Assembly (NCBI RefSeq): GCF_964213995.1
Contig: NC_135830.1
Location: 1,612,001-1,676,000, forward strand
Length of the DNA stretch: 64,000 nt
Direction of reading: 5' to 3'
DNA from: Mustelus asterias
Taxonomy: Eukaryota
How positions within the stretch are numbered: position 1 is the first letter of the stretch; every line of letters begins with the position of its first letter. Shown one piece after another: positions 42,570 through 54,948 of the stretch. The position numbers and the translations under genes are program-made. The notes under the pieces were generated by a model, which did not search any database, was not told where the DNA came from, and saw only the letters and a program-made list of their open reading frames with translations.

Positions 42570-42602
42570 TCACGAAATGTAAAAATCAACTGACCATTTG
42601 AC
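42570..42602 (-). CDS. IGHM: IgM cytoplasmic exon TM2, extended (VKWSVDFYIS*)
   Basis: After a 140-nt intron, strong acceptor tttatctctcccttacag followed by GTC AAA (VK), then TGG where a stop is expected. The frame runs to TGA at 42572-42570. Confidence 0.75.
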   Translation of the reverse strand, partial: VKWSVDFYIS

Positions 42603-42742
42603 CTGTAAGGGAGAGATAAATTACTGAAGCAGATGTGTTTAATTTGGGGCATTTTCACAACGAATATTAATCATTGAAACTTTCAGAGATTTTTCAAACC
42701 GACTCAGTCAGTTTGAAGTGTGGGTCGATTGCATCTTCTCAC

Positions 42743-42870
42743 ATTCATCAGGGTGAGGGCCGCACTGTAGGACATGCTCAGGAAGAACAGGATGATGAAT
42801 GTGAATGCGGTTGTCCAGCCTTTACCGTTATCTTCTGGATATTTTTCCATCCAGGTTTGGTCTGTTAAAT
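42743..42870 (-). CDS. IGHM: IgM transmembrane exon TM1
   Basis: Acceptor tatccttgtag, phase 1 matching the CH4 internal donor. (D)LTDQTWMEKYPEDNGKGWTTAFTFIILFFLSMSYSAALTLMN, with the conserved antigen-receptor TM motif (W..A.TFI.LF.LS..YS). Donor AAT|GTGAGA. Confidence 0.92.
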
Positions 42871-43619
42871 CTACAAGGATACAAGACAATATAATTAGAT
42901 TGATTATTAATCACAGCCTCTTATTGTTTAGTTTATGTTACACTTTCTTTTTCTAAAGATATTACTTTATTTTCTAAGTTAAATTTCAGTGTATATCTAC
43001 TTTTAAATTCCTGAGATTCCAGATTCCTGGTGTCGTTTACATACTAATAACTTCCTTGACTGAAGGTGTGGCAAAATTTCTTAATCATAAGTTTATTTTC
43101 GACCAGTTTCATGAAATCATTAAGCAGAGCGTATCAAGAAGAATATTGAGGGACCTGCACTCAGCTACATATTTTCAAACTGTGAATGTTGGCATAGAAG
43201 TTTTTTCCATTCTTGCTAGTTTATTTGTGATGGATTTGCTTGACCCGTCATGAACTAAAATCAATCTCTTAGTAATAACGTTACTTCAGTATTTTTGTTG
43301 GTCGTTATGTAACAGGGACATTTTTGGCGAATATGTCCGTTAAAAAGTTACATTCCAATTATACTTTCAAAAATAGCCTGGTGTTCATATTGTTTCTTTC
43401 TGCATTTTTTGTGTGTGTTCTCAAGTCTCCCCTCAGTTGTTCTTTGTCTGTGCCTCCATATGTGTGTTTGAGTGTTAATGTGTTTGTCGAGGTGCCAATG
43501 TTGATTTATGTGTTTTTGTGTGTACAGCTCTCGTTATATTTTGTCTTTGAATCAATTTGTACAAAATAATATGACTCTGAGCGTTTGTGTCTTTATGTCT
43601 ATGTGCATGTATTCATTGT

Positions 43620-43925
43620 GGGCAGCACGATGGCACAGTGTCTCAGTGATTAGCACTACTTCCTCACAGCGCCACGGGTCAGGTTCGATCCCTGGCTTGG
43701 GTCACTGTATGTGCAGGCTCTGCACGTTCTCCCTATGTATGCATGCGTTTCCTTCAGGTCGCTCCCAAAGTCTGAAAGACGTGCTCATAGGTGCATTGGT
43801 CATGCTAAATTTTCCCTCAGTGTACCCAAACACGCGCCGGAGTGTGGCGACTAAGGAATTTTCACAGTAACTTTATTGCCTTGTTAATGTAACCTACCTG
43901 TGAAGCGAGCTAACAAACTTTAAAT
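43620..43925 (+). mobile_element. HE1-like V-SINE type 2
   Basis: Head plus type 2 tail. Confidence 0.8.
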
Positions 43926-44559
43926 CATGCATTTCTTAATTGGTGTTCTTGCGTAAATGTCTGCGAACGTGCGTTAAAGTGACTCCTTGTGTCCCACATG
44001 TGCGTCGCTATATCATTGTCTGTCTCTTCTTGGCGCAGATGTGTGTGAATATGTGTGTGTGCGCATATGCATGCAGGCATTCCTCTGAGCAGAAAAAAAA
44101 TTGAATTGATGACGCAAATAGAAATTAGTAAGTACAATCTGATCACTAATACACAGATATTTCCGACGGATCCAAAGGACTGGGATCTGTATAGTTTTTA
44201 GGAAGATATTTAGGAAGGGGAATAAGTTAAAAAAAGTTGGAGCGATAGCTCTGTTAATTACGGATCGTGTTAGCATATCAGAGAGGAATGGCCTATTTCC
44301 ACAAATTCAGATGTAGAAGGAGTTTGGACTGAGATGAGGAACAATTCAGTTACTTACTCCAGAATTGTAATTGCACGGTTAGAACAGAATGTTAAAGAAG
44401 GTATAGTGGGAGCTTTTCAGAAATGTATGGACGTAACCGTGGATGATTTTACACTACATATTGATCAGAATAATCAGACGAACAGAGATAGCAGTAGGTT
44501 AGTAGTTCATGTTTTCGTGATAGTTTCTCAGACAAGCAGGTTGTGGTGCCAATCAAGAG

Positions 44560-52330: not shown

Positions 52331-52474
52331 CAGGTTCGAATAGCTGAATGGCCTGCTGCTGCTCCCAATTTCAGCTTTTCCAGTTGATGGAGTTACTAAT
52401 GCATTGAATACTAAATTTGGAGCCTTACACTTACACTTGAATGACTCACTTATTGATTGAATATCACCGCTTAC

Positions 52475-52783
52475 CCCCTTCCTTGCGTATAGATTGTTTT
52501 AAAGTACTGGGCAGATCCTGGTGGCTCACAGAGCAGTAGAATTCATCGCCACTCAGCCATGCTTGCGTTGAGATGTTTAACTTGCTGACCACACTGTCAA
52601 GATCCTCTCCAGTTTGTGTGGCAATCTTTGGATCCAAAGCCTTATTTTTTAGGGCCCAGGACACGTTCACCCCATAAAGAGCACCAGACACGATGCAGGT
52701 TAAGGTCACCGTCGCCCCCAGTAAGACCTGTTCTATTGGCGGTGGCAGTAGAGTAATTATGGGATCAGCACATAAGGAAAGAC
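52475..52783 (-). CDS. IGHM: IgM heavy chain constant exon CH3
   Basis: Acceptor tttctctttcacag, donor G|GTAAGC, 309 nt. [34 protein letters not shown]...[34 protein letters not shown], typical of shark Cmu3. Confidence 0.95.
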
Positions 52784-54129
52784 CTGTGAAAGAGAAATGA
52801 AAATCAACCAATCTTCGAAATGAGTAAAGTATTATTTCATCTTCACTCTGTAAAGGGGATTAAATCACTTTTAACCAATCAGTTTCTCACTGTTAATCAA
52901 ACAACATTGTTGATAGAAAGCATAATAATTAGAAGAAAGCTTCAGTGTGATCCCAAATTATTAGCTACATGCTTGTACTTGCTCTGAAGTACCCGGCATC
53001 TAAATTAAATAATTGCGTGATGATTATGTTGCACATTGAATTCCAAAATCTCTCAGTCATTTATGACTTTCCATCAATCGGTGCGGTCGAAAAAATGTCT
53101 CAGCTGAACATAATATTCCCTCGTCCAATGAGTCAAACATGAAAATTTTGTCGACTCAAACTGATTGTCAAATGAAATCCAGAATTTTTAACCATAACCT
53201 CTGCCTGACCCTGTTAGTTCTGTTTTTTTGCCTTAGCATTTGTGATTTCAATTCGAACCCGCATGATTTTGCTTCTATTTGTTTCAGTTTAAAAGAAAAT
53301 ACTTTCAAGCTTTTTGATGCGGTGGAAATGTGGGCGGAGGGGTGAAAGGCCAGGAAAATTCAAGTGTATTTTTTATGGTAGACAATAATCTCAATGTCAG
53401 TATTAGGTCATTTGCTAATGAACTGTCAGTGTATATACCTCATATTATTCTGCCTTCAGGAGAGGATTTGACCCCAGAGCATTGATAATGACATTGGAGA
53501 ACTTATAGACCATTAATCCCCTCAAACCAATCCCTTAGGTTTTATTAAATGTTAGCTGGCCGCTACCTTAATTCTATCCAACACCCTTAATATTCGTCCC
53601 ACAGAAGAAGATTACCGACAACATTGAAAGTTTGAATTTATGCCCATTCTCAAGCGCAAATTTGTGGAGGCAATTCTGGTCTTTCCTACCGTCTGTCTGA
53701 ATACATCCCTCTGGCAAACAGTCCTGAACGGCTCATTTTTAAGTATGACGTTTAGCTACAATAAAAAGGGGGCCTGCTGAAAATACTCGGCAGGTCTGCC
53801 AGTATCTGCGGAGAGATAAACAGACTAATTGTTTTGCGTCGTATAGCTCGTCTTCATAGCTCTGAATATGAAGAGAGCACTTAAATTGAAATGAAACACT
53901 GACTACCAAGTAGTATTAGGCTATTGATTTGGACGATTAGCCATGATCGTGCTGAACGGCGGAGCAGGCTCCAAGGGCCGAATGGCCTCCTCCTGCTCCG
54001 ATCATCTATGTTTCTATGTATTCCGTGATAATAAATTAGACGATTTTCCGTGCATTATACTACCTTCAAAAATACTGATTTTTATTAACTCTTGAACGAT
54101 CTATTGCTTCCTGGGATTATATTTCTTAC

Positions 54130-54447
54130 CCCCAACTCCGCTGATATCTCGACTTTTGGTGACCCCTTGATGTGTGACTTCGCATGTGTAGACCTCGTTG
54201 TTGATCCATTCCCCAGCGGAGACTGTAAGTCGGCTTGTCACCGAGAAGTTCCCGTTCACTTCGAAGGCTGGCGACGTGACAATTCCCGAATCCATTGATT
54301 GCCCATTCTTCAACCACTTAACAGTCATTGACTTCGGATAGAAATCAATGATTGAACAGACGATGGTTGCAAATTTGCTGCTTGTAATTTCTTTACTGGA
54401 TGCCACCGTGACGATGACAGTTGGAGGGAAGTTGACGCGTCCAGGAC
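54130..54447 (-). CDS. IGHM: IgM heavy chain constant exon CH2
   Basis: Acceptor ctgtttctggaag, donor G|GTAAGA, 318 nt, phase 1/1. [49 protein letters not shown]...[20 protein letters not shown]. Canonical C1-set residues present. Confidence 0.95.
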
Positions 54448-54648
54448 CTTCCAGAAACAGACTATAGATATTTCTTGCACAAGAAATTGATAGCATATAC
54501 AAAAAGTTCTGATAATTTAGCAGATCGTAGCCAATAGACAGATACCTGGACATTCCAGGGATAAGGATGAAATAAAAGCATTATAACCAGGACGCTAAAA
54601 TAAAGCCTAATCATAACGTTTCTTTTTCAAATGTTCCGCAATACTTAC

Positions 54649-54948
54649 ATTGCATTTCAATGCTCTTCTCTGAGCCGCTGTGTTGAACTTCACAGCTGAT
54701 ATTGCTGCATCCCTCCTCTGATTGGGCGATGGTTAACTCGCTGCTCAGGGTATATGTTCCCTTCATGTTTCTCACTGACGGGAAAGTCTTCACTCCTGTG
54801 GTAATTGACTGTCCATCTTTCCTCCAGATGAGGCTGGTAATTTCTGGGGTGTAGTCGACCGCTAAACAGCCATAGGTGACGGATCCGTATGTGTCTTCTT
54901 GCTGACAGGAAGAGACCAGGCTGTAGAGAGTGGGCGGAGACGTTGTCA
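54649..54948 (-). CDS. IGHM: IgM heavy chain constant exon CH1 (shark-type)
   Basis: Acceptor attctttcccag, donor T|GTAAGT, 300 nt, phase 1/1. Translates (V)[99 protein letters not shown](C). C1-set Cys/Trp/Cys present, plus the N-terminal Cys expected to bond the light chain. Resembles shark Cmu1 as I recall it. Confidence 0.95.

Follow-up and report, generated by a model that had tools for sequence, protein, structure and literature searches.

In sharks, the choice between the 7S monomer and the 19S pentamer of IgM is usually ascribed to J-chain expression, and in the spiny dogfish monomer and pentamer reportedly favour different clusters. Germline-joined configurations of shark immunoglobulin heavy-chain genes are already known, as the accessible text of two papers indicates (PMC4279169, PMC6795676), and for IgM1gj of the nurse shark, the portions available report a monomer and a dimer in neonatal animals (PMC4279169, PMC5192425). 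Here, we describe a gene in a 64,000-nucleotide stretch of the 3.7-Gb genome of Mustelus asterias (NC_135830.1; G000:C71:1612001-1676000), called the window below, which holds the constant region of an IgM heavy chain. In our view, the gene is probably an old, intact minilocus for shark IgM that exists in a single copy and is subject to purifying selection; it has V, D1 and D2 joined, a secreted chain that lacks the tail cysteine and is likely to form H2L2 monomers only, and a narrow and partly fixed third complementarity-determining region (CDR3).

In agreement with the initial annotation of the window, six exons on the minus strand (Cmu1 to Cmu4, encoding the domains CH1 to CH4, and the transmembrane exons TM1 and TM2; 42570-54948) have open frames and phase-matched AG/GT ends. 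All four C exons match Pfam C1-set, TM1 matches the membrane mu chains of solved receptors, and the cysteines at the CH1/CH2 junction and, for the link between heavy chains, at the start of CH3 are both retained. With these four C1-set exons, the mu-homologous TM1 and TM2, and its own V, D and J elements with 12/23 recombination signal sequences (RSS), the gene has the composition of an elasmobranch IgM minilocus; the poly(A) signals of both the secreted and the membrane form are kept. Cmu2 is intact, so that the gene was rightly distinguished from IgM1gj.

The secretory tail is truncated. Where the paralogues have TCA, this gene has TAA, which removes Ser-Cys-Gln and lets the chain end in ...LMDTVN, and the ancestral stop, three codons further on, has decayed to TGG (49150-49148). 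This loss of the tail cysteine, already noticed in the initial annotation, is also present in a contig of single-copy depth (X1) without a single difference over 49040-49196; X1 is possibly the assembly's own sample, so that its match rules out an assembly error and nothing beyond that. The loss is not unique. The genome contains at least 105 mu-type CH4 matches, probably with haplotype duplicates among them, and in the 73 distinct loci surveyed (86 rows, 13 of them repeats) the cysteine is kept in 67 and lost in six, namely this gene, two copies of a lineage represented by C71:4714961, a disrupted gene that carries the same TAA and is present in two copies, and another disrupted gene in which a tyrosine takes the place of the cysteine. 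The Cys-less loci fall apart in a nucleotide tree, and the losses are thus independent: a shared origin of the TAA with the pseudogene C127:443552 was rejected on this basis, and a shared origin of the cysteine loss with C71:4714961 on the same basis and because of the different lesion.

In an alignment to human mu (8gzn_A), the truncation ends the chain three residues early, just before Cys575, the penultimate tail cysteine of polymer-competent IgM, to which the J chain binds according to the available part of PMC11729874. Counted along the same alignment, the CH3 domain of the shark chain has no cysteine at the position of human Cys414, as in the paralogues shown. In the accessible portions of PMC11161108 and PMC11729874, mu2-L2 protomers that carry no covalently bound J chain are described as the main secreted product of human C575S and C414/575S chains. 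By analogy with these mutants, a chain lacking both cysteines is likely to assemble only as H2L2 monomers, which would also be the likely product because the cysteine between the heavy chains is retained; the proposal of a monomer-only secreted form is thus likely to be correct.

A 96%-identical orthologue (about 4% diverged) is present in a second species, organism B. A contig of 1,151 nucleotides (X3) agrees with CH4 at 222 of 232 letters and runs directly into the 3' end of CH3 (27 of 30). What is left of it is long enough for CH3, CH2 and the greater part of CH1, and at five positions that set this gene apart from the paralogue class the contig has the letters of this gene. We take it to be an orthologue's transcript after splicing; the depth of the contig does not measure expression. 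In DNA of the same organism (X12-X14, one sample), an orthologous contig over 48930-49196, which breaks at the same place as the X1 contig, has 10-11 differences in 267 letters; none is listed at 49157-49159, where a paralogue letter would have shown, or at the decayed old stop. This argues strongly that the tail stop is shared with species B, and it is apparently older than the split of the two species; the TGG at the old stop in both is expected if the TAA took over earlier. Orthologous clusters with the same changes, which the initial annotation proposed to look for in other species, are thus apparently represented in species B as regards the tail stop, and none was seen in the runs of organism C: the orthologue was not found at 84-87% likeness in X7, in X17 (75% read) or in X6, of which the latter two are from organism C, and sets of 54, 5 and 4 proteins from databases did not contain it either, both being weak negatives.

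The upstream V-D-D-J region lies past the window end and went unmentioned in the initial annotation beyond a proposal to inspect it for intact RSS or germline joining. Both were found: RSS, V and J are intact, and V, D1 and D2 are joined while J is separate. The block from leader to JH sits about 1-2 kb past the window end, and VDD-12RSS and 23RSS-J precede CH1 by about 10 kb. The V exon gives a V-set match, its fusion with D1 and D2 reads ...CAKDYGNWGE, and the D2-J segment is normal (about 400 nucleotides, both RSS present), so that VDJ is only partly joined. A somatic origin of the VDD join is unlikely, as the single-copy consensus and the diverged junction argue against it, although such joins do occur in shark thymocytes according to the part of PMC2435157 available. 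Partial or full germline joining is read in 8 of 30 V loci, this gene included. Further germline-joined clusters, of the VDD-J, V-DD, V-D-DJ and VDDJ types, are L092/L093, L099, L108/L109, L117, L119 and L130, and the tail cysteine is present in every one of these whose tail was read. A pre-joined V would narrow the repertoire, which suggests an innate-like antibody of limited diversity more than a memory antibody that arises by class switching. In the proposed mechanism, a single RAG cut-and-join of VDD to J, as the intact RSS suggest, would complete the gene and leave most of CDR3 fixed; splicing as in other mu genes would yield a four-domain chain, in keeping with the CH3-CH4 splice seen in the species B orthologue; and this chain, with the tail cysteine lost and no Cys414 equivalent in shark mu, would offer no thiol to the J chain or to neighbouring subunits and would be secreted as a monomer, as the human C414/575S mutants mainly are.

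The extension of the cytoplasmic tail, likewise noticed from the outset, is due to a change from TGA to TGG in TM2 that adds eight residues (VKWSVDFYIS) by a one-base read-through into the former 3' untranslated region (UTR). Nothing like it was found in 44 distinct paralogous TM loci. A further change, which the initial annotation had not mentioned, affects the TM1 donor, AAT/GT here and AAG/GT in 44/44 of the same paralogous loci (Lys to Asn); it likely weakens the donor, and read-through of the TM1 intron would yield a different, longer tail. Loss of the membrane-form poly(A) signal was considered and rejected, as an AATAAA was found on the far side of a repeat insertion of about 1 kb. This insertion in the membrane-form 3' UTR consists of nested short repeats (window positions about 41380-42345).

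The initial annotation had taken the changes in the tail, in CH2 and in TM2 as concerted and as paralleling the design of IgG/IgY. An IgG/IgY-like reading would have monomeric secretion and a Tyr-bearing tail co-evolve in a memory subclass to amplify receptor signalling, and it can draw on the likely monomer secretion and on an extension that is unique among 45 TM loci and holds a tyrosine. We consider it very improbable. The YxN core of the ITT (immunoglobulin tail tyrosine) motif, strictly conserved in all known ITT motifs of IgG, IgE and IgY tails in the accessible text of PMC4263166, is absent, the tail reading Y-I-S-stop; the extension is a former 3' UTR read through after the loss of one stop, most likely incidental and no signalling module; and the diversity is limited by the pre-joined V, which fits a restricted innate-like repertoire. 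The third supposed change is the loss of a CH2 cysteine, which is real (TSPAF in place of TSPAC) and at the same time ordinary variation, the cysteine being absent in 19 of 47 paralogues, with Trp in 10, Tyr in 6 and Phe in 3 after two spurious pattern hits were dropped; Phe also occupies the site in catshark and sawshark chains. It was therefore rejected as a special change, and, with a common polymorphism and a single lost stop base among them, the changes cannot be called concerted.

The gene is single-copy. Its next-best matches reach 82% amino acid identity in CH4, 75% in V and 70-74% nucleotide identity in TM, and its depth in X1 is about 22, compared to about 1,200 for the paralogue class. 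In a protein tree (a quick IQ-TREE without four disrupted loci and those that lack exons), its highest identity to other mu chains is 72%. Its branch is long (0.43) and basal and does not belong to the main expansion, in which the Triakis chain is found; the exact position is weakly supported (81/80). The gene is under purifying selection: with a codon model of our own, run over 428 codons of 13 sequences on a fixed tree, the ratio of non-synonymous to synonymous changes (omega), the measure proposed for the C exons in the initial annotation, is 0.35 on this branch (interval about 0.25-0.5; p=4e-9 versus 1) over a neutral-scale length of 0.33. Values per domain (9 sequences) are 0.38 for CH1, 0.20 for CH2 and 0.27 for CH4 with the tail, and V has 0.36 (p=0.002 versus 1).

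These values bear on early pseudogenisation, according to which a once functional cluster has lately escaped selection and the tail stop, the weak TM1 donor and the TM2 stop loss are its first lesions. This appears improbable to us: three separate terminal lesions, an omega of CH3 not significantly below 1, and the existence of broken pre-joined clusters in the genome (C71:17404379) speak for it, but about 1,900 coding bases have passed a branch of 0.33 without an internal stop or frameshift at an omega of 0.35, RSS, promoter region and poly(A) signals are kept, and species B has a spliced orthologue, the stop apparently predating the split. Disabling stops or frameshifts, dead RSS or an omega near 1, as expected of a pseudogene, were not found, and the initial judgement that this is no random pseudogene holds.

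It should be noted that several observations weigh against the explanation preferred here. The identical TAA arose independently in the broken paralogue C127:443552, so that the change is also a product of decay; the hydrophobic tail strand is retained, and some non-covalent pentamer with J chain persisted in human C414/575S according to the available part of PMC11161108. The X3 contig has no record as RNA, and the orthologue's tail is outside its coverage; two of the 10-11 differences in species B are unlocated, and a private change in the stop codon is possible; B is one DNA sample, only about 4% diverged; four of the seven visible changes between the species in CH4 are non-synonymous (two changes in one codon are one of each kind); and no transcript or protein of this gene was seen from its own species, no RNA data set being listed as containing it, which has no bearing on expression. 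The omega of CH3 (0.69) is not significantly below 1 (p=0.3), that of TM1 (0.33) reaches only p=0.057, and the upper limit for the branch permits about its last seventh to have been unconstrained.

The gene might also be a functional but unspecialised old IgM cluster, in which the tail stop is drift, tolerated in that ordinary shark mu is already half monomeric, and polymers still form non-covalently or with normal chains. We regard this as rather unlikely. The branch omega is the same as that of the background (0.40, p=0.42), without a changed regime, 7S and 19S come from the same shark loci in the accessible part of PMC5192425, non-covalent assembly survives in the human mutants of PMC11161108, and the lesion is a one-base change also present in a pseudogene; however, a cysteine kept in 67/73 loci is normally selected, two species apparently retain its loss, and another intact lineage with pre-joined V has lost it as well. 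The gene looks functional and is conserved, if over a small evolutionary distance only: a real, modest variant of shark IgM.

The second lineage comprises C71:4714961 and C71:11011229 (L065/L121, L066/L122). It is likewise divergent and has four mu domains, its VDJ is fully germline-joined in frame, its shortened tail (...CFVNISNYSQ) lacks the penultimate cysteine and has a new one upstream, and the light-chain-type site of CH1 is without Cys; in the second copy the 5' end of V is disrupted. A loose end in organism B DNA (X13) matches this type of tail, and the lineage appears to exist in species B too. Tentatively, it may be that gene-encoded monomer-only IgM evolved at least twice in this lineage of sharks, in this gene and in C71:4714961, each time with a germline-joined V and loss of the cysteine and both kept in a second species, which would constitute a hard-wired innate-like 7S class that is neither IgM1gj nor the 7S controlled by J chain. 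A catshark-type mu record (P0074) ends in DTVNS without Cys-Gln, being either partial or a real Cys-less tail and, in the latter case, a possible precedent. The literature searched describes no Cys-less tail for any mu gene of sharks, and an earlier description in primary or subscription papers or in supplements is possible; nor did it show a partly joined V coupled to such a tail.

Features of the gene, from the leader to the membrane-form poly(A) signal (window positions unless C71 is given)
Feature	Position	Strand	Remarks
Leader	C71:1677871-1677916	-	intact; outside window
VH fused with D1 and D2 remnants	C71:1677428-1677750	-	open frame, end ...YYCAKDYGNWGE
12-spacer RSS	C71:1677400-1677427	-	
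23-spacer RSS and JH	C71:1676985-1677071	-	
JH-Cmu1 intron, part inside window	54949..64000	-	5' half of gene just past window end
Cmu1 exon, 300 nucleotides	54649..54948	-	domain Cys and light-chain-type Cys retained
Cmu2 exon, 318 nucleotides	54130..54447	-	Phe at site variable (Cys/Trp/Tyr/Phe) in paralogues
Cmu3 exon, 309 nucleotides	52475..52783	-	N-terminal inter-chain Cys retained; human Cys414 position without Cys
Cmu4 and secretory tail	49157..49539	-	premature TAA 49159-49157; membrane-form internal donor after 49210
Two AATAAA signals, secreted form	49106..49120	-	
TM1 exon	42743..42870	-	TF/YS core conserved; WTTAST Ser to Phe; last codon Lys to Asn
TM2 exon with stop loss	42570..42602	-	VKWSVDFYIS in place of IK/VK
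AATAAA, homologous to the paralogues' membrane-form signal	41178..41183	-	shifted about 1 kb by inserted repeats

Other immunoglobulin clusters accompany the gene. An adjoining mu cluster on the opposite strand (C71:1563826-1582000, L035-L037) has a V of very low similarity (about 41%) and, as it appears, a single D segment, and its C region is placed in the tree near catshark P0010 and horn shark. Multi-domain heavy-chain clusters that are IgNAR- or IgW-like, 44-47% identical to Cmu4, are found on C71 near 0.75, 0.98 and 2.92 Mb, close to this mu gene, and on C185. One group of mu paralogues (L083-L087, L150, L151) has the tail ...PVLVDPVSSCQ and Val-Gly in TM2; one copy is frameshifted and one member has a fully joined V. 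Between immunoglobulin clusters, the window also contains an intact frame of a rhodopsin-family G protein-coupled receptor (7tm_1; 6342-7304, minus strand) and fragments resembling such receptors near 34585-34869 and 37091-37724 (plus strand).

If selected and expressed, a mu gene unable to form the tail disulfide would be a second, genetic route to 7S and a natural mutant for testing the role of the tail in shark IgM assembly, and it shows that constant-region subclasses have diversified among the mu clusters, of which there are about one hundred. As a single copy, the gene cannot account for the bulk of serum 7S. With canonical elasmobranch IgM (Triakis scyllium BAJ20180.1, nurse shark AAU04510.1, horn shark P23087.1) it has in common the layout V-D1-D2-J-Cmu1-4-TM1-TM2, the exon phases, the domain Cys and Trp residues and a secretory tail with an N-glycan site, whereas its tail ends DTVN without SCQ, its TM2 is extended, its V-D-D is pre-joined, and its identity to the chains in the tree is at most 72%. 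Nurse shark IgM1gj (AAK07642.1) is likewise a divergent mu subclass with germline joining, but it lacks Cmu2, has a fully joined VDJ and ends ...DTINSCQ, whereas here Cmu2 is present, one join is needed and the Cys is absent; the two do not group together, the forks being weakly supported. Partly germline-joined (VD-J) shark clusters have the same configuration; in the literature consulted, none of them was described with a Cys-less tail. The ITT tails of mammalian IgG and of IgY are, like the present one, longer than KVK and contain one Tyr; that of this gene has 11 residues, no YxN, an origin by stop loss and no homology to them. The predicted assembly state is that of shark 7S monomeric IgM, yet 7S is described as coming from the same loci as 19S, with the pentamer depending on J chain, whereas here the monomer status would be encoded by the gene.

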